NCBI GenBank assembly: GCA_963708135.1 | Contig: OY970192.1 | Span: 5,184,001 to 5,248,000 of the forward strand | Source of the DNA: an uncultured Gemmatimonadales bacterium | GTDB lineage: Bacteria > Gemmatimonadota > Gemmatimonadetes > Longimicrobiales > RSA9 | Direction: 5' to 3' | Length of the DNA: 64,000 nucleotides | Shown here: positions 44,083 through 52,894 of the stretch, in pieces | How the letters are laid out: each line of letters begins with the position of its first letter | Numbering within the stretch: the stretch's first letter is position 1 | The notes under the pieces: model-generated | What the model was told of the DNA's origin: nothing | Databases searched by the model: none | Seen by the model: the letters and a program-made list of their open reading frames with translations, nothing else | Program-made: the position numbers and the translations under genes

Positions 44083-46176
44083 ATGCCGATGCCGCCCGCC
44101 CGCCGTTCCGCCGCGTTCCTCGTCTGCGCGGCGGCGCTCGCGTTCGGGGCCGCGCTCGTGGCCTCTGGCTGCTACCGCCGCCTGGTGGTCTCACCGAACG
44201 ACGCGGCCACGGTGCTCGCGCACCAGACGCTGGAGGCGCCGGATCCCGCGCTTCCGGGGTCATACGCGGTCCGGTCGCTCTACTACGGGAGCGGGACGGA
44301 CCGGAGGCGGGCGGTGTACCGGGACTCGGTCACGCTCCGGACGGGGACGGTGGATGCGTCGCCTTTCGTGGATCTCGGGAAATCGGCGAAGGAGCGGAAC
44401 GGCTACTGGGGCTTCACGCCGAAAGCGTTCCCGCTGAACGGGCGGGTCTGGTACCCGGACGGGCCCGGGCCCTACCCGCTCGTGCTGATCGTGCACGGGA
44501 ACCACGACATGAAGGACTACTCGGACCCGGGCTACGCGTATCTGGGCGAGCTGCTGGCGAGCCGCGGCTTCATCCTCGCCTCCGTGGACGAGAACTTCCT
44601 GAACGGCAGCATCCGGGGCGAGAACGACGGGCGGGGCTGGATGCTGCTGAAGCATCTGGAGCTCTTCCGCGGCTGGGACGAGGCGGAGGGCAACCCGTTC
44701 TACCAGCGCGTGGACATGGACCGGATCGCGATCATGGGCCACTCGCGCGGCGGCGAGGCGGTGGCGCACGCGGCGTCGTTCAACCGGCTCTCGGCCTACC
44801 CGGACGACGCCAACGTCAAGTTCGACTTCCACTTCCACATCCGTTCCGTGGTGGCCATCGCGCCCGTGGACGGGCAGTACGACCCGGCCGGTGAGCCGGA
44901 GCCGGTGCGGGACGTGAACTATCTGGTCTTCCACGGCTCGCACGATGGCGACGTCTCGAGCTTCATGGGGCTGCGCCAGTACCACCGCGTGCGCTTCACG
45001 GACGGGCGGCCGCACTTCAAGGCGGCGGTCTATGTCTACCGCGCGAACCACGGCCAGTGGAACACGATCTGGGGCCCGCACGACAACGGCCCGCGCAGCG
45101 CCCGCATTCTCGACCTGCGCGGGCTGCTCCGGCCCGAGCAGCAGCGGCAGTTCGCGAAGGTCTACATCGGCGCGTTCCTCGAGGCGACGCTGCACGACGA
45201 CGCGCGCTACCTGCCGCTCTTCCGCGACCACCGCGTGGCCGGCCAGTGGCTGCCGAAGACCATGTACATCACGCGCTTCCAGGACGCGAGCTTCCGCCCC
45301 GTGGCCGATTTCGAGGAGGACGTGGATCCCGGCACGGGCAGCGTGCCGGGCGTTCGCATCGAGGGCGACTCGCTGTCCACGTGGAAGGAGGGCGACATCG
45401 CGCTCCGCTGGAAGAGCTCGCGCGGCGCCGGCCGCAACGCCACGCAGGACAACCAGGCCGTGTGGCTCGGCTGGAACGACCGCTACGCGGGCGCGGACAC
45501 GACCCGCCGCGGGCGGCCCGCGAGCTACACCATCGTGCTGCCGGACTCGCTCGCCGCGGCGTGGCGCCTGGACGCCGGCGCGCAGCTCCAGCTGCTGCTC
45601 GCGCCCACGGACGAGATGCCGGGCCCGCGCGCGCTGCCGAAGGCGCTGGCCGAGGCGGAGAAGGCGGCCGGGAAGGGAGGCGGGAAGGGTGGAGCCGCGA
45701 GGAAGCGGGGGAAGCGGGACCTCACGGATCTCCCGCCCATCGACCTCAGCGTCGAGCTGCTCGACGCGGACGGCGACTCCGCGCGCGTGCCGCTCGACCG
45801 CTACGGCGCGATCCGCCACCCGCTCGTCACGCACCCGGTCCGCCGCGGCGACATGGAGCGGGAGGAGTTCGCCCGCCCGTACGAGTACGTGCTCCAGACC
45901 TACACGGTCCCGCTCTCCGATTTCCGCCAGGCGACGTCGCCGCTCGACCTCGCCCGGCTCCGCCGCATCCGCCTGGTGTTCGACCGCGCGCCGGCGGGGA
46001 CGGTGATCCTGGACGGCGTCGGCTTCGCGCGGCTCGACCCGGCGTTCATGAAGGACCGGCTGCCTTCCGGGGCGACGTCTCCAGTCTCCGAAGCCACCCT
46101 CGACCCTTCCCACGCGACGGGGTCCGGCGTCACGGCCGCCAGCGCACCTCGAAGCGGTGGGCGGCCGCGCCGTTGA
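44083..46176 (+). CDS. Exported alpha/beta hydrolase, probable lipoprotein
   Basis: ASGC lipobox-like, LVLIVHGNH, GHSRGG nucleophile, HDGD, ANHGQWN. Confidence 0.85.
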   Translation: MPMPPARRSAAFLVCAAALAFGAALVASGCYRRLVVSPNDAATVLAHQTLEAPDPALPGSYAVRSLYYGSGTDRRRAVYRDSVTLRTGTVDASPFVDLGKSAKERNGYWGFTPKAFPLNGRVWYPDGPGPYPLVLIVHGNHDMKDYSDPGYAYLGELLASRGFILASVDENFLNGSIRGENDGRGWMLLKHLELFRGWDEAEGNPFYQRVDMDRIAIMGHSRGGEAVAHAASFNRLSAYPDDANVKFDFHFHIRSVVAIAPVDGQYDPAGEPEPVRDVNYLVFHGSHDGDVSSFMGLRQYHRVRFTDGRPHFKAAVYVYRANHGQWNTIWGPHDNGPRSARILDLRGLLRPEQQRQFAKVYIGAFLEATLHDDARYLPLFRDHRVAGQWLPKTMYITRFQDASFRPVADFEEDVDPGTGSVPGVRIEGDSLSTWKEGDIALRWKSSRGAGRNATQDNQAVWLGWNDRYAGADTTRRGRPASYTIVLPDSLAAAWRLDAGAQLQLLLAPTDEMPGPRALPKALAEAEKAAGKGGGKGGAARKRGKRDLTDLPPIDLSVELLDADGDSARVPLDRYGAIRHPLVTHPVRRGDMEREEFARPYEYVLQTYTVPLSDFRQATSPLDLARLRRIRLVFDRAPAGTVILDGVGFARLDPAFMKDRLPSGATSPVSEATLDPSHATGSGVTAASAPRSGGRPRR

Positions 46177-47215
46177 AGGACTCGTAGGCGTAGTCGAGGC
46201 CGATGGCGTCGCCCGTGAAGCCGGCGCCCAGGGTGAGGGGGCTGCCGCCGTAGTCCTCCACCCGGCGGGCGCCGGCGCGCAGGTAGAAGGTACGGCCGAC
46301 CACGGGCCAGTAGCCGAGCTCGATGCCGCCACCGGGGAGCAGCGTGCCGTCGCGGCTGCGGGCGAGCGCGGCGGCGGCGCGCAGGTCGAGGGGGCCGAGG
46401 GTCACGCTGCGGCGCGTCGCCAGCTGGAGCGAGACGCGGGTGGGCAGCGGCACCGGGACGCGGTCCACGCGCAGGTCGCGCCCGAAGTCGTGCAGCGCCA
46501 GCCCGATGGCGAGGATGCTCACGTCGGCCCCGAAGCCCACATCACCGGCCACGGTGGCGGAGTGGATGACGCCGCTGCGCTGCTCGACGAGCTTGGCGGC
46601 CACGCCCACCCGGAGCCCCCGGACCGGCCGTCCGTACCCCAGCGTCGCGACGTGCTCGGCGACGGGCAGCGCGCCCGTCGCGGTGAGGTCCCGCTCGCGC
46701 TCGCGGCGCAGGATCGGGCTCGCCGCCGCGGCGTAGTCGAGCGACTGGAGGCCGCCGGCGAGGGCGCCGCCCAGCCACGCCCCGCCGCCCGCCAGGGTGA
46801 GGAGCGTGCTCTCCCCGCCGAAGCGCTCCGCCCCGAGCGAAAAGCCGCGCAGGCCGTCGGCGTACGCCGGGTCGTAGAAGAGGCCAGCGGCGTCGGCGGA
46901 GCCGAGCAGGAAGGCATTGCCCATCCCGAGCGCGCGGGTGGAGGCGGGCAGCTCGAGCACGAGTGGCGTGCGGGGCGCACTCTGGGCGGCGAGTCGGCCG
47001 GCACCGCCGAGCGGCGCCGCGCCCGGTAGCGCGATGGCCAGCAGCGCGGCGGCCGCCAGGGCGACGGCCCGCGGCGCCCCGGCGGCGGGGCGCGCCCCGC
47101 GCGGGCGCCGCACGAACCGCTGGCGCCGGGGGATCGACTCGCGGCTCGCCGGCCGCCGTGCCGCGCGGGCCGGCCCTGCGGCGGTCGTGGCGTCGCTGCC
47201 CTGGGGTGCGCTCAT
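46130..47215 (-). CDS. Outer-membrane beta-barrel (PorV/FadL-like); start uncertain
   Basis: PASTRALGMGNAF, GLFYDPA, LDYAY..HRFEVRW. Confidence 0.7.
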   Translation of the reverse strand: MSAPQGSDATTAAGPARAARRPASRESIPRRQRFVRRPRGARPAAGAPRAVALAAAALLAIALPGAAPLGGAGRLAAQSAPRTPLVLELPASTRALGMGNAFLLGSADAAGLFYDPAYADGLRGFSLGAERFGGESTLLTLAGGGAWLGGALAGGLQSLDYAAAASPILRRERERDLTATGALPVAEHVATLGYGRPVRGLRVGVAAKLVEQRSGVIHSATVAGDVGFGADVSILAIGLALHDFGRDLRVDRVPVPLPTRVSLQLATRRSVTLGPLDLRAAAALARSRDGTLLPGGGIELGYWPVVGRTFYLRAGARRVEDYGGSPLTLGAGFTGDAIGLDYAYESFNGAAAHRFEVRWRP

Positions 47216-47248
47216 CGGCTCTCCGTGTTCAGGCCGCCTCGGTCCGCC

Positions 47249-48160
47249 TCAGGCCGCGGCCGCGGCCGGCCGGCACACCTTGCAGGGGCGGAACCCGGCG
47301 CGCGCGGCGGCGCGGGCGTCCGCGAGCGGGACGCGGCTGGCGGGCGAGACCCGGCGGACGTGGCGACAGGTCGGATGGCAGTAGATCCCGGTGGTGCGGC
47401 AACCTACGTAGCGCGTCCCTTCGCGCGCCAGCGTCTCCATCTCGTCCACGGGCGCGCCCTCCGCCTCGAGGACGGCCCGCTTGGTGCCGGCCCCGCCGAG
47501 GGAGTACGCGCCGATCCCGCCCGAGGCGGGCACCACGCGGTGGCAGGGGACCAGGAGCGGCACGGGGTTGCGGGCCAGCGCCGTGCCCACGGCGCGGACC
47601 GCGCGGGGCCGCCCCGCCTCCCGCGCCACCCAGCCGTAGGGCCGTGCCTCGCCGGGGGGAATGCGGCGGATCGTCTCCAGCACCGTCCGCTGGAAGCCGC
47701 GTGCGGCCGCCAGGTCCACGGGCGCGTTCCGGTCCCCCCGCCCGGCCGCGGCGTCGGCCACGGCGCGCGCCAGCGCCGCCGGCACCTCCCGCGGCACCGG
47801 CGGGCGGCCGAGCCGGCCGGCGTACCAGGCGACGAACTCCGCCTCGGGCTCGAGCGCGGAGCGCACGGCGCGAATCCCCTTCGGCCCGAAGGCGACGCGC
47901 ATCGGGCCGAGCGCGGTCTCGACCACGCCCATGCCATCGGCCGCCTCGCGGAGCACGGCGCCCATGACTCCCGCGGGGGCGCTCCGCCGCAGCGCGGGCG
48001 CCGCCTCCGCCAGCGCGCCGGCGAGCGCCGCCACCCGCTCCCGCGCCGCCGCGCACGCCGTGCAGGAGCGCAGGTGCTCCAGAACCGCCTCCGCCTCGGC
48101 GGCGGCAAGCTCGCCGGCGTCCAGCGCCTCGAGCCGCGCTCTCACGCCCTCACAGCGCAT
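47249..48160 (-). CDS. zf-HC2 anti-sigma domain + O6-alkylguanine DNA alkyltransferase + Ada Zn-binding domain fusion
   Basis: HLRSCTAC; RAVGTALARNPVPLLVPCHRV; TTGIYCHPTC..GFRPCKVC. Confidence 0.88.
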   Translation of the reverse strand: MRCEGVRARLEALDAGELAAAEAEAVLEHLRSCTACAAARERVAALAGALAEAAPALRRSAPAGVMGAVLREAADGMGVVETALGPMRVAFGPKGIRAVRSALEPEAEFVAWYAGRLGRPPVPREVPAALARAVADAAAGRGDRNAPVDLAAARGFQRTVLETIRRIPPGEARPYGWVAREAGRPRAVRAVGTALARNPVPLLVPCHRVVPASGGIGAYSLGGAGTKRAVLEAEGAPVDEMETLAREGTRYVGCRTTGIYCHPTCRHVRRVSPASRVPLADARAAARAGFRPCKVCRPAAAAA

Positions 48161-48761
48161 CGCTCACCTCCTCGTCCTCCAGGATCTCTCGCAGGCGGGC
48201 CAGTGCGCGGAACACCCTGCCGCGCGCCGCCGCCTCCGTGCCGCCGATCACCGCCGCGATCTCCGCGTAGGAGAGCTCCCCGAGGAAGCGCAGCGTGACC
48301 GCCTCGCGGCCGCCCTCGTCCAGCGCCGCGAGCGCGCGCTCGAGTGCCCGGTGCCGCTCGGCCACGAGGAGGCGGGCCTCCGCCGCGGGCGGGCGGGCGG
48401 CGGCCGCGTCGCCTGCGGCCGCCTCCAGCGGAACGAGCGCGGTCCGGTCGGCGCGCCCCGAGCGCAGCCGGTTCAGGCACAGGTTGCGCACGATGCGGAG
48501 CAGCCAGGGCCGGAGCGGGAGCGCCGCGCAGCGCGCCTCGTCGTACTGCGCGGTGAGGGCGCGGTGGGCGCGCACGAGTGCGTCCTGCACCACCTCCTGC
48601 CCGTCCGCCCGCCCGACCATCCGGCTGGCGTAGTCGAACAGGCGGTCCTGGTGCAGGGCGACGAGGCGCTCGAGCGCCCCCGGCTCTTCCCGGTGAACCG
48701 CCACCGCGAGCGCGCCGCGGCGCCGCTCGTCCCGTTTCTCAACTCTCATGGTCGGCATCAT
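48150..48761 (-). CDS. ECF sigma-70 factor (start 48761 or 48749)
   Basis: EVVQDALVRA, PWLLRIVRNLCLNRLR, LSYAEIAAVIG..RGRVFRALARLR; 11-bp overlap with downstream gene. Confidence 0.9.
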   Translation of the reverse strand: MMPTMRVEKRDERRRGALAVAVHREEPGALERLVALHQDRLFDYASRMVGRADGQEVVQDALVRAHRALTAQYDEARCAALPLRPWLLRIVRNLCLNRLRSGRADRTALVPLEAAAGDAAAARPPAAEARLLVAERHRALERALAALDEGGREAVTLRFLGELSYAEIAAVIGGTEAAARGRVFRALARLREILEDEEVSDAL

Positions 48762-48866
48762 TCCGGAGACACGCGCGGCGGCCGCCGCGTTCGCGCCGCC
48801 GGTACAATCTCTGCATTGTTCGGCCGCCACCGCAGCCCAGCCGCCCCGACGGCGCCGGAGCCGACC

Positions 48867-49685
48867 TTGATCATCGACTGCCACACGCACCTGAACCGCT
48901 ACAACGATGGCGAGCCGGCCGCGCTCGCGGACCGCTACGGCGCGCTGCGCGCCGAGATGGAGCGGAACGCCGTGGACTACGCGCTCGTGCTCTCGAGCTA
49001 CAAGGTCAACGGCGAGCGCCCCGGCGTGGACGAGATCCTGGACGTCGTGGACGACGATCCGCGCCTCGGCGTGGTGGCCGGCGTCAGCTACGAGCACTAC
49101 CGCGCCGCGGACCTGGCGCACCTGAGGATCCTGCTTAGGACGCGTCGCATCAAGGCGCTCAAGCTCTACCCCGGCTACGAGGCCTACTACATCCACGACC
49201 CCCGCATGCGCGTGGTGTACGAGCTGGCCGCCGAGTTCGGCGTCCCGGTCATGATCCACACGGGCGACACCTTCGACCCGAAGGGCAGGGTCAAGTACGC
49301 GCACCCGCTCGAGGTGGACGAGGTGGCCGTCAACTTCCGCGACGTCACCTTCGTCATCTGCCACCTCGGCAACCCGTGGATCACCGACGCCATGGAGGTC
49401 ATCTACAAGAACGAGAACGTCGTCGGCGACATCTCCGGCTTCACCCTCGGGCACTTCGAGGAGCGCTTCGAGCGCTACATGCTCCAGCAGGTCAACGAGG
49501 TCGTCGCCTTCGCCGGTGATCCCTCGAAGCTGCTGTACGGCACCGACTGGCCGATCTGCGACATGGGCGGCTACCTGCGCTTCGTGCGCCAGCTCGAGCT
49601 GCGCGAGGAAGAGATCGACATGATCCTGTGGAAGAACGCCGCCCGCATATTCCACATCGACACGGACGAGCTGGAGGCGCCGTGA
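48867..49685 (+). CDS. Amidohydrolase_2 family metal-dependent hydrolase
   Basis: IIDCHTH, LKLYPGY, VMIHTG, ICHLGNP, LYGTDWP; TTG start. Confidence 0.9.
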   Translation: MIIDCHTHLNRYNDGEPAALADRYGALRAEMERNAVDYALVLSSYKVNGERPGVDEILDVVDDDPRLGVVAGVSYEHYRAADLAHLRILLRTRRIKALKLYPGYEAYYIHDPRMRVVYELAAEFGVPVMIHTGDTFDPKGRVKYAHPLEVDEVAVNFRDVTFVICHLGNPWITDAMEVIYKNENVVGDISGFTLGHFEERFERYMLQQVNEVVAFAGDPSKLLYGTDWPICDMGGYLRFVRQLELREEEIDMILWKNAARIFHIDTDELEAP

Positions 49686-50604: not shown

Positions 50605-51618
50605 ATGCTTTCCATCCCCTGGATCCTGGCGCTCGCCACCGGCCTCGCCGCGCCCGCCCCGCAGGTGCCGGCCCCGATCGCCGCAGGCGACGGCGCCACC
50701 GCGGGCGCCGAGCGCGCGTCCGGCGCCGTGGGGGCCGACACGGCCGGCCGGAACGTGCGTCCCGGCAACGCGACGCACCTGCGCATCGAGGTCGCGCCCG
50801 CGGAGACAATGGCCGTCACGCTCGCCGGGGAGGGGTCGCCGGTCGTGATCGTGCCGGGGATGCTCGGCGCCGCGTTCGGGTTCCGGAAGGTGATCCCGCT
50901 GCTCGAGGCCGAGGGCCGCCGGGTGGTCGTGATCGACCCGCTCGGCACCGGGGCGTCTTCCCGGCCACGCCACGCCGACTACTCCTTCACCGCCCAGGCC
51001 GACCGGGTGGCGGCCGTGCTCGACAGCCTCGGGATCGGCGGCGCCGTGGCCGTCTGCCACGCCCTGGGTGCCTCGATCTGCTATCGGCTGGCGTACCGGC
51101 ACCCGGGCGCGCTGGCCGGCATCGTCTCGCTGAACGGCGGCCCGGCCGAGCAGGTGGGCAGCCCCGGGCTCCGCTTCGCCCTCCGCTTCGGGCCGCTGCT
51201 CCGGCTCTTCGGCGGCAATGACGGCGCCCGCAGCAAGGTTCGCGAGGGCCTCCGCCACAGCTCCTTCGACAGCACCTGGGTCACCGAGGCCGTGGTGGAC
51301 GCGTACGTCGCGCCCTTCGGCGGCAGTGCGGGCGGGGCGATCGCGCTGCTCAAGCGCTTCGCCTCCGCCCACGAGCCCGAGCCGCTCGCGCCGCACCTGC
51401 CCGACGTGCGCGTCCCGGTCGAGCTGCTCATCGGCGCGGCCCCCCGCAGCGCCACCGACGACGATGTCCAGCTGGACGTCCTCCGCCGCGGCCTCCCCGA
51501 CCTCGCCGTGGACACCGTGGCCGGCGCCGGCCAGTACATCCAGGAGGAGCGCCCCGCTGCCGTCGCCCGCGCGGTGCTGCGGCTGACCTCCCGCCTGGCG
51601 AGCGCGGGCGCGAGGTGA
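50605..51618 (+). CDS. Exported alpha/beta-hydrolase-fold protein, catalytic Ser/His absent
   Basis: Signal peptide; VPGMLG, IDPLGTGASSRP; CHALG at nucleophile elbow; GAGQYIQEERP. Confidence 0.85.
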   Translation: MLSIPWILALATGLAAPAPQVPAPIAAGDGATAGAERASGAVGADTAGRNVRPGNATHLRIEVAPAETMAVTLAGEGSPVVIVPGMLGAAFGFRKVIPLLEAEGRRVVVIDPLGTGASSRPRHADYSFTAQADRVAAVLDSLGIGGAVAVCHALGASICYRLAYRHPGALAGIVSLNGGPAEQVGSPGLRFALRFGPLLRLFGGNDGARSKVREGLRHSSFDSTWVTEAVVDAYVAPFGGSAGGAIALLKRFASAHEPEPLAPHLPDVRVPVELLIGAAPRSATDDDVQLDVLRRGLPDLAVDTVAGAGQYIQEERPAAVARAVLRLTSRLASAGAR

Positions 51619-51757
51619 GGGGCGGGGTGGCTGGCAAGCCCTGAGGCATCGTCGGCGAAGGCGGGGGCCCCGTGCCGCGCCTGCGGTCCCGGGGTTGCAT
51701 CACCGCCTTCGAGCGCGGCCGTTCCGGCCGCCGTGCAGCAGCAGAAAGGGGCCGCTC

Positions 51758-52894
51758 GTGATCCCGATCCACCTGAGCCTCGCCGTCCTCGCTGCGGCGT
51801 CGTTCGCCGGGGGTGGCGCCGCGCCCGCGGCGGCCAGCGCCCGGCAGGGCGTCCCCGCGGCGGCGGCGGAGTCGTCGCCTGCCAGCGACTCCGGCCCGCG
51901 CCTCAGCGGCATGGCCGTAATCGTGGCGCCAGGGGAGACGATGGCGGTGAAGGTGGCCGGCTCGGGCCCGCCGGTGCTGGTGGTGCCGGGGCTGTTCGGC
52001 TCGGCCTTCGCCTTCCGCAAGGTGACGCCGCTGCTCGTGGCCGCTGGCCACACGGTGCTGGTGGTGGATCCGCTCGGCGTCGGCAGCTCCTCGCGGCCGG
52101 CCGATGCGGACTACTCCCTGACGGCGCAGGCGGACCGACTGGCCGCCGTGCTGGACGCGCTGCACCTGCACGACGTGCTCGCGCTCTGCCACACCCTCGG
52201 CGCCTCAATGTGCTACCGGTTGGCGTACCGGCACCCGGGCGCGCTCGCGGGGATCGTCTCGATCAACGGCGGACCGGCGGAGGCCATGACGGGTGGCGGG
52301 ATGCGGTTCGCGCTCCACTTCTCGGGGCTGATCAAGCTGTTCGGCGGGCTCGGCGCGGTGCGGAGCAAGGTGCGGGCGCGGATGATCGAGAACTCGGGCG
52401 ACTCGAGCTGGGTCACGCCGCCCGTGGTCGATGCCTACATGCAGAGCTTCGGCCACGACCTCGACGACGCGTTCGCCACGCTGAAGCGCCTGTCCTCGGC
52501 GCACGAGCCCGAGCCGCTGGCGCCGCACCTGGACCAGATCCGGATCCCGGTCGTGCTGCTGCTCGGGACCGGCACCACGACCGGGGTGATCACGCCATCG
52601 CAGACGGCGCTGCTCGAGCGGACGCTGCCGGACCTGGCGGTGGACAGCGTGGCCGGCGCCGGCGAGGACCTGAACGAGGAGCGCCCGCGCGTGGTGGCCG
52701 GGGCCGTGCTCCAGCTCGCCCGGCGCCTCGCTGCGGCCGCGGGCGGGGACCCGGCGGGGGCTCACCCGGGGCCGAGCGCCTCCACTTCCGACTCCCATGC
52801 GACGCCGCGCGCCGCCAGCTCCCCGCGCACGAAGTCCCAGCACCCCGGCGCCGCACCCACCTGCTCCGGCGGCGAGACGCCGGGCTCGTCGTAG
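51758..52894 (+). CDS. Exported alpha/beta-hydrolase-fold paralogue, catalytic Ser/His absent
   Basis: Signal peptide; VDPLGVGSSSRP; CHTLG; GAGEDLNEERP; tail overlaps convergent gene. Confidence 0.85.
   Translation: MIPIHLSLAVLAAASFAGGGAAPAAASARQGVPAAAAESSPASDSGPRLSGMAVIVAPGETMAVKVAGSGPPVLVVPGLFGSAFAFRKVTPLLVAAGHTVLVVDPLGVGSSSRPADADYSLTAQADRLAAVLDALHLHDVLALCHTLGASMCYRLAYRHPGALAGIVSINGGPAEAMTGGGMRFALHFSGLIKLFGGLGAVRSKVRARMIENSGDSSWVTPPVVDAYMQSFGHDLDDAFATLKRLSSAHEPEPLAPHLDQIRIPVVLLLGTGTTTGVITPSQTALLERTLPDLAVDSVAGAGEDLNEERPRVVAGAVLQLARRLAAAAGGDPAGAHPGPSASTSDSHATPRAASSPRTKSQHPGAAPTCSGGETPGSS

Follow-up and report, generated by a model that had tools for sequence, protein, structure and literature searches.

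An ECF sigma factor paired with an alkyltransferase that carries zinc anti-sigma and Ada-type domains: a candidate suicide-sensor circuit for DNA alkylation in an uncultured Gemmatimonadales bacterium

Results

An ECF sigma factor gene overlaps a three-domain partner gene

We analysed a window of 64,000 nucleotides (nt) from the genome of an uncultured Gemmatimonadales bacterium (assembly GCA_963708135.1, contig OY970192.1, positions 5,184,001 to 5,248,000). On its reverse strand lies a gene for an extracytoplasmic function (ECF) sigma factor, followed by a gene whose product, P0001, fuses an anti-sigma domain, an O6-alkylguanine-DNA alkyltransferase and an Ada-type zinc domain (Table 1). The first-pass annotation, drawn from the letters of this DNA, had described such a pair, and its account of the architecture is borne out element by element. 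The two genes indeed overlap, by 11 nt, the ATG of the fusion gene at 48160 lying that far inside the 3' end of the sigma gene (coordinates of the open reading frames, ORFs). The upstream product is an ECF sigma factor (sigma-70 group 4) consisting of regions 2 and 4 only: Pfam places Sigma70_r2 on residues 33-103 and Sigma70_r4_2 on residues 138-190 and finds no other domain, and the TIGR02937 (sigma70-ECF) score of the protein, 69.5 bits, clears the cut-off of 42.9.

P0001 matches the Pfam domains zf-HC2, DNA_binding_1 and Ada_Zn_binding, each above its gathering score. Its nine cysteines (positions 3, 33, 36, 206, 254, 261, 265, 293 and 296) include those of the predicted N-terminal HxxxCxxC zinc motif (H29-x3-C33-x2-C36, with C3 as the fourth ligand), of the intact PCHR alkyltransferase site (P205-C206-H207-R208, together with a PF01035 match) and of the C-terminal four-cysteine Ada zinc domain (C261-x3-C265-x27-C293-x2-C296, together with the Ada_Zn_binding match). 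The first-pass annotation was also right that the partner carries no AraC-type helix-turn-helix (HTH): the Pfam scan of P0001 gave no HTH_AraC or HTH_18 match at E <= 0.01. The protein therefore lacks the feature that marks the regulators Ada and AdaA, an AraC-type HTH after the zinc domain. An AlphaFold2 model of P0001, built with 24 homologues, is confident overall (mean predicted local distance difference test, pLDDT, 92.2; predicted TM-score, pTM, 0.74). Given that the zinc ligands, the PCHR site and the Ada cysteines are all conserved in homologues, this combination of genes and domains is not a chance juxtaposition. A scan of positions 45900-49100 found neither terminators nor sigma-70 promoters.

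Table 1. Features of the sigma factor locus and of the candidate regulon operon. Positions are those of the window, except where the prefix G000:C1 marks the contig of the whole genome.
Feature	Position	Strand	Details
ECF sigma factor gene	48150..48761	-	203 aa; start ATGATG; stop TGA at 48150-48152
Fusion gene (P0001): anti-sigma, alkyltransferase and Ada zinc domain	47249..48160	-	303 aa
Anti-sigma domain, residues 1-78	47927..48160	-	HxxxCxxC motif at 48053-48076; predicted ligands C3, H29, C33, C36
O6-alkylguanine-DNA alkyltransferase, residues 79-236	47453..47926	-	N-terminal and DNA-binding domains; PCHR at 47537-47548; predicted acceptor C206
Ada-type Cys4 zinc domain, residues 247-298	47267..47422	-	PF02805, E 9.2e-10
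Putative ECF-type autoregulatory promoter, CGAAC-N15-CGTGTC	48768..48793	-	-35 at 48789-48793; -10 at 48768-48773
alkA-like/ogt operon (locus L112)	G000:C1:274437-276011	-	Preceded by CGCGAACGCGGCGG-N8-CGTGT, the same element as at the sigma gene

The N-terminal domain resembles zinc anti-sigma factors

The zf-HC2 match covers residues 3-37 of P0001 and passes marginally (24.6 bits against 22.2, Pfam). In the AlphaFold2 model the N-terminus forms four helices (residues 3-14, 20-32, 34-57 and 65-73), with H29xxxC33xxC36 at the junction of helices 2 and 3 and C3 within helix 1. We take this arrangement of helices and ligands over residues 1-73 to be the layout of a class-I zinc anti-sigma (ZAS) domain. 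Among 56 homologues of the long form, those with the full anti-sigma domain, H29 never varies, and conservation reaches at least 90% at each of C3, C33 and C36; C33 and C36 are lost in some long forms, namely P0022 and P0037. P0001 thus combines the characters of a ZAS protein: the motif with its upstream fourth ligand, the family match, a three-helix bundle followed by a fourth helix, and an adjacent ECF gene.

A structure prediction of the complex, which the first-pass annotation had proposed as a check, yielded a sandwich that passes its controls. With our own alignments as input (45 and 56 rows), the sigma factor and residues 1-85 of P0001 gave an interface score (ipSAE) of 0.84, 0.83 and 0.84 in three runs, against 0.00 for the best of three controls; the mark applied is reached by 116 of 157 solved complexes and by 2 of 215 mismatched pairs, counts which are only a rough guide here as our own alignments were used. 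Contacts agreed between runs to at least 94%, and the pLDDT of the partners was at least 87. In the model, sigma residues 30-66 (region 2) and 136-194 (region 4) contact anti-sigma residues 7-12, 17 and 42-73. The contacts predicted with most confidence lie between sigma residues 34-63 and anti-sigma residues 59-69, the latter a segment that is kept in the short forms described below. The complex model is therefore consistent with binding of the sigma factor by the anti-sigma domain. When the whole P0001 model was searched with Foldseek, the matches were alkyltransferase and N-Ada structures, with no anti-sigma structure among them.

Two predicted methyl-acceptor modules follow the anti-sigma domain

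The middle of P0001 is an alkyltransferase by several independent comparisons. DNA_binding_1 (MGMT, PF01035) matches residues 156-236 with an E-value of 7.6e-29, TIGR00589 scores 82.6 bits, and Foldseek aligns the model to 1sfe (E 2.7e-9, TM-score 0.75 on the target) and also to the Mycobacterium tuberculosis OGT 4wx9. In the phmmer comparison with 4bhb (E 4.2e-18), the motifs RxYG, ARAVG, NP, PCHR, GY and LE of the M. tuberculosis OGT are all kept, including the conserved Tyr, Arg, Asn, Tyr and Glu residues that presumably have their usual roles in the alkyltransferase active site. With PCHR, these conserved residues and the two-domain fold, P0001 has the make-up of an Ogt/MGMT protein, and alkyl transfer is its predicted activity.

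The C-terminal Ada_Zn_binding match (38.8 bits, cut-off 23) spans model positions 14-64 of 65 and so leaves the opening 13 positions of that N-Ada model without a counterpart. The phmmer alignment with E. coli N-Ada (1adn, E 2.1e-8) takes in residues 248-301 of P0001 and places C261, C265, C293 and C296 on C38, C42, C69 and C72; the P0001 pattern C-x3-C-x27-C-x2-C includes one inserted residue. Foldseek also matched this domain to 1zgw and 1u8b, with 42-44% identity. Cys38 of N-Ada is the residue that accepts methyl groups from phosphotriesters. Neither PCHR nor any of the four Ada cysteines varies in either of our two alignments (24 and 56 homologues), and the same is true of the other alkyltransferase residues named above.

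The pairing is conserved, and the partner occurs in several forms

Related loci were collected from species genomes (10) and metagenomes (80), and their six-frame ORFs were searched with the window sigma factor. All 70 loci that could be judged have an ECF sigma gene immediately upstream, in the same orientation (9 of the 10 from genomes and 61 of the 80 from metagenomes); the remaining one and 19, respectively, have too little upstream DNA to judge, and there was no locus with at least 700 nt of upstream DNA and no sigma gene. The first-pass annotation had allowed that the linkage might not be conserved, and the synteny search it had suggested thus comes out in favour of conservation. Both the sigma stop and the partner start could be placed at 57 loci. 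The genes overlap at 52 of these, and at 38 the overlap measures 4 nt; the figures depend on the rule for choosing starts, which took the earliest ATG, GTG or TTG in a stretch beginning 25 nt ahead of the sigma stop. PCHR is present at all of these 57 loci and the Ada Cys4 pattern at 55.

A profile search of 1.84 billion cluster representatives returned 653 matches at E <= 1e-30. The partner homologues with names come from metagenome-assembled genomes of Longimicrobiales, Gemmatimonadota, Thermoanaerobaculia, Chloroflexota, Ktedonobacterales and Actinomycetota, the closest from the first three. Long forms carry the full zinc anti-sigma domain; the closest genomic homologue, at locus L001, has a partner 55% identical to P0001 and a sigma factor 60% identical to that of the window. 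Two loci from the window genome's own family (L012 and L021) encode the ZAS domain and the alkyltransferase without the Ada zinc domain. Short forms, found at most loci, are 248-279 aa long, lack helices 1-3 and the zinc ligands, and belong mostly to Acidimicrobiia and other Actinomycetota. None of the 54 short-form relatives has the ZAS helices or cysteines, yet an overlapping sigma gene and the autoregulatory promoter are kept. The first 30-50 residues of these proteins are conserved (L..L....AP..L...VL..GLAD.Y), and a profile of the 54 sequences aligns to residues 44-78 of the long form (hhalign probability 95.2%, E 2.6e-8). What the short forms retain is thus helix 4 in full and the last part of helix 3. 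Since the zinc-less short forms keep both the sigma linkage and the sigma-contacting segment, it would be the repair body and not the zinc thiols that carries the signal. Three matches were longer fused forms, none of them with a sigma domain: P0122 is an MGMT and Ada_Zn protein whose C-terminal half has no assignment, and the other two resemble canonical Ada with kinase domains.

Two further gene associations were seen at these loci. A gene for an EamA-family transporter lies downstream on the same strand at eight short-form loci (L039, L042, L048, L055, L058, L065, L074 and L096) and could encode an exporter that takes part in the same response. Additionally, a second ECF sigma gene stands divergently just upstream of the pair at six metagenome loci (L049, L054, L068, L073, L086 and L088).

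A shared promoter element points to a candidate regulon

The element CGAAC-N15-CGTGTC ends 6 nt ahead of the ATGATG of the sigma gene, from which we predict a leaderless or nearly leaderless sigma mRNA. Across the family, GCAAC-N16-G[GT]GTT occurs upstream of the sigma gene at 22 of 41 loci (160-nt regions), against a mean of 0.03 in shuffled sequences and one occurrence in the reverse complements; the window promoter has the same spacing, and at L001 the upstream element reads CCGAAC-N15-CGTGTT. The enrichment of this motif before the sigma genes suggests an autoregulated operon, the usual arrangement for ECF sigma factors.

The genome of the window is a single contig of 5.45 Mb and was searched whole. 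The pattern CGAACGCGGCGG-N8-CGTGT occurs twice where 0.019 occurrences are expected, and none or one was found at each of the other spacings from 0 to 30. The second copy (G000:C1:275986-276011, minus strand) is non-coding, lies outside the window and ends 8 nt before another ATGATG. It precedes an operon that opens with a gene for an HhH-GPD glycosylase of 346 aa (E 8.2e-12), here named alkA-like, and continues directly with a canonical ogt of 171 aa (PF01035 at 3e-34, with Methyltransf_1N). As both ATGATG starts lie a few bases past the -10 element, the sequence suggests that the sigma and alkA-like transcripts are leaderless. The alkA-like/ogt operon is thus a candidate regulon member of the sigma factor.

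A looser pattern gave 32 matches in the genome, with 21 of the 30 other sites inside coding frames according to an analysis of G+C content at third codon positions (GC3). The sigma promoter is itself flagged as coding by that analysis, as it overlaps a long ORF on the opposite strand. Two more non-coding matches to the loose pattern precede a YciI-like ORF and a lipoprotein ORF (labels assigned by eye). In G061, the genome that holds L001 and the other long-form genome examined, CGAAC-N14-16-CGTGTT has 11 matches, one of which is the sigma promoter.

The fusion is the only Ada-type zinc protein detected in its genome

Three alkyltransferase-type domains were found in the genome: that of the fusion, that of ogt, and an alkyltransferase-like protein in which PWWR replaces PCHR (L114:1528-1803, plus strand; its counterpart in G061 is at L135). 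The genes for these two alkyltransferase-like proteins are each preceded by a similar ORF of about 285-337 aa, and the two genes may form a conserved pair. Neither AlkB nor AlkA_N domains were found in the genome, which is 97.65% complete. Its sole Ada_Zn_binding match is the fusion itself (40 bits), and a canonical Ada was not found in it. Among 60 relatives from the same family and order, an Ada_Zn_binding match was found in 33, with scores of 22-114 bits; 32 of these scores exceed the curated cut-off and 31 lie at about 95-114 bits. All four of the relatives' Ada proteins that we inspected combine Ada_Zn, an AraC HTH and MGMT. In this genome the sigma system hence appears to stand in for canonical Ada, which is not a general rule since G061 has both.

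Neighbouring genes in the window

A 361-aa ORF (46130-47215, minus strand) begins 34 nt past the stop of the fusion gene, with no terminator-like site in the gap, and may be co-transcribed with the sigma operon. It has a weak match to the PorV/PorQ family (NCBIfam E 1.7e-10, below the cut-off) and none in Pfam, and is not conserved at related loci. On the opposite strand, the 697-aa product of 44083-46176 weakly matches a PETase/chlorophyllase-like hydrolase domain (E 8.4e-7), and its long C-terminal half has no assignment. Two adjacent alpha/beta-hydrolase genes (50605-51618 and 51695-52894, both plus strand) are clearly similar to each other, both with signal-peptide-like N-termini, and look like a tandem duplication.

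Discussion

The pair described here has relatives in the catalogue of ECF groups. According to the supplement of Casas-Pastor et al. 2021 (PMC7826278), ECF122 has a 6-O-methylguanine methyltransferase gene at position +1, and ECF203 has a methyltransferase at +1 plus Ada_Zn_binding at 1.22 per ECF. The catalogue describes both groups as 100% Actinobacteria with 'no putative AS factors', and TetR is suggested there as the regulator of ECF203 (PMC7826278); the entry for ECF122 in a 2022 review stands under 'unknown mechanism' (PMC8999054). In the main text of PMC7826278, ECF122, methylguanine/methyltransferase, alkyl and DNA repair go unmentioned. Compared by these descriptions only, the window sigma resembles both groups in having an alkyltransferase gene at +1, and ECF203 also in the associated Ada_Zn_binding domain. 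Moreover, the short-form relatives, mostly Actinomycetota, fit what the catalogue says of ECF122 and ECF203. Unlike these groups as described, the partner in the window has an explicit zinc anti-sigma domain, and unlike an exclusively actinobacterial family, its closest named homologues are from the Longimicrobiales, Gemmatimonadota and Thermoanaerobaculia. The promoter listed in the supplement for ECF122 (CTCAC / CGTCTAC) is absent from the 130 nt upstream of the window sigma gene. The promoter words listed there for ECF51, GCAACCG (-35) and GCGTGTC (-10), are similar to the motif of the window family, a likeness that does not settle membership (PMC7826278 supplement). The first-pass annotation had left aside whether such a system has been described. 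The gene pairing is indeed catalogued, as ECF122 and ECF203 in the supplement; the anti-sigma nature of the partner and its signal were not found in the literature that we searched. Likewise, our full-text searches returned no mechanistic study of the pairing of an ECF sigma factor with an alkyltransferase/Ada_Zn protein.

Two well-studied designs meet in P0001. With E. coli Ada (1adn, 1u8b, 1zgw, 1sfe) it shares both methyl-acceptor modules, seen in the aligned cysteines of the Zn-Cys4 domain and in the alkyltransferase fold, and presumably the logic by which irreversible self-methylation turns on repair genes. Unlike in Ada, the alkyltransferase precedes the zinc domain, a reversal of the module order; no AraC HTH is present, and the output would be release of a sigma factor instead of direct binding to a promoter. 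With the soluble zinc anti-sigma factors of the pairs RsrA/SigR and ChrR/SigE (ChrR: 2q1z, 2z2s) it shares HxxxCxxC with an upstream ligand, the four-helix topology and co-transcription with the ECF gene; as in these pairs, the modelled helices 1-3 contact region 4 and helix 4 contacts region 2. The signal of RsrA is thiol oxidation, and ChrR carries a C-terminal cupin domain. The C-terminal sensor of P0001 would, unlike either, be a pair of suicide alkyl acceptors.

How, then, might the circuit work? We lean, with modest confidence, towards a suicide-sensor anti-sigma factor that drives an Ada-independent adaptive response to alkylation. In the undamaged cell, the anti-sigma domain (residues 1-78) would clamp regions 2 and 4 of the sigma factor and keep it off RNA polymerase. 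The two repair modules would accept alkyl groups from damaged DNA, at C206 and/or C261, and the protein would thereby be irreversibly spent. Spent P0001 would be destabilised and degraded, or else switched in conformation or towards DNA binding, and the sigma factor would be freed. It would then transcribe its own operon from CGAAC-N15-CGTGTC, supplying fresh repair protein and inhibitor at once and closing the loop, and in this genome it would also transcribe the alkA-like/ogt operon from the same promoter element. Such a circuit would gauge the consumption of a suicide repair protein. We favour this reading because both acceptor sites are strictly conserved, because no element other than the alkyltransferase occurs in all three forms of the partner, and because the sigma linkage persists in forms without the zinc thiols; it also agrees with the known behaviour of such proteins, as alkylated alkyltransferases are destabilised and methylated N-Ada changes its affinity for DNA.

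The first-pass annotation had proposed that self-methylation of the repair protein could release the sigma factor, an interpretation that is supported in part. The architecture, the sigma linkage, the four-helix fold, the pair of promoter copies with the autoregulatory one at the sigma gene, and a complex model consistent with binding all came directly out of the computations and agree with it. From these we infer methyl transfer as the releasing signal, a role for one or other cysteine, and the regulon.

An RsrA-type thiol switch is the best placed of the alternatives, although we regard it as unlikely. Here, electrophiles or oxidants would attack the zinc cysteines of the ZAS domain and release the sigma factor, the alkyltransferase and the Ada zinc domain being repair cargo made at the same time. 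The complete set of ZAS ligands is conserved in long forms (H29 invariant and the cysteines at least 90% over the 56 sequences), and RsrA-type anti-sigma factors do let go of their sigma factors upon thiol oxidation or alkylation. However, 54 of 54 short forms keep the overlapping sigma gene and the autoregulatory promoter with neither ZAS helices nor cysteines, and even P0022 and P0037, which are long forms, have lost C33 and C36. A thiol switch moreover leaves unexplained why the constant companion is a suicide acceptor (PCHR at 57 of 57 loci, Ada Cys4 at 55 of 57).

Ranked next, and again improbable in our judgement, is a non-covalent titration in which methyl transfer is not the signal: DNA binding would compete with sigma binding, or the protein would be a feedback buffer triggered by proteolysis on some other cue. 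Both fused domains are DNA-binding modules (PF01035 and N-Ada), and autoregulation with an inhibitor in the same operon would give feedback with no covalent step. Binding to DNA alone, though, has no need of the acceptor cysteines and the catalytic network, which are strictly conserved; indeed, alkyltransferase-like proteins bind lesions without the cysteine, and the genome has one of these, with PWWR. It is very unlikely that the anti-sigma domain, instead of inhibiting the sigma factor, serves to bring the repair protein to it or to RNA polymerase so that repair is coupled to transcription: the overlapping genes would give tight, stoichiometric co-expression, but the modelled interface is the classical class-I sandwich over sigma regions 2 and 4, which is incompatible with binding to core polymerase. 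Finally, that the module is a decaying or non-functional remnant of horizontal acquisition with no regulatory role in this genome is hardly credible; its sporadic distribution and the lack of a close orthologue in the 60 relatives would fit, but both frames are intact, every motif is conserved, the fold is confident (pLDDT 92.2), and the promoter is present with a second copy at a repair operon.

Several points weigh against the suicide-sensor reading itself. The pass of the complex model may stem from likeness to ECF/anti-sigma complexes that have already been solved. In sequence comparisons with solved anti-sigma factors, ChrR was the only match to the anti-sigma domain, at non-significant E-values of 5.7-8.4, and the Pfam score of the domain, as said, is marginal. 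The regulon claim consists of two promoter copies in one genome, with a pattern defined after the first copy had been seen. In G061, the element was not found upstream of the ada, ogt or alkyltransferase-like genes, and that genome also has a canonical Ada, so that both systems occur together. The triple fusion was not found in the 60 relatives of the same family and order, where the best match is 40% identical and has no Ada zinc domain, and the module is therefore sporadic. Lastly, no third gene is universal across the loci (Pfam, 150 GC3-filtered flanking ORFs), and among the loci with scanned flanks a repair glycosylase follows the pair only at L007 and L095, of the Tag type at the latter.

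A fuller version of the suicide-sensor account is possible, though we would stop short of calling it probable. The sigma factor and its suicide anti-sigma factor would have replaced Ada as master switch in this organism; methylation of C206/C261 would disable the anti-sigma domain, and both operons would be read as leaderless transcripts. The half-domain relatives would work alike and supply the anti-sigma factor of ECF122 and ECF203. In that case, P0001 would be the first anti-sigma factor to be inactivated by covalent transfer from a DNA lesion.

Conclusion

The module is real, intact and conserved, and it is a variant of the sigma/anti-sigma kind. To the pairing already in the catalogue, the window adds, from outside the Actinobacteria, a partner with an explicit zinc anti-sigma domain. 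It also adds the alkA-like/ogt operon as a candidate member of the regulon, in a genome where no canonical Ada was detected. Much of bacterial signalling runs through ECF sigma/anti-sigma pairs, whose known inputs are proteolysis, thiol oxidation, partner switching and the like. A single-use DNA-repair enzyme as the sensor of an anti-sigma factor would, if true, be a new class of input, in which the cell counts and replaces its consumed repair molecules. Two catalogued ECF groups, listed without an anti-sigma factor and with their mechanism called unknown, would thereby be explained as well. With two genes and one promoter, the proposal is directly testable in a heterologous host. If it holds, there would be a second, Ada-independent design for the adaptive response, spread across several phyla of soil and water bacteria.

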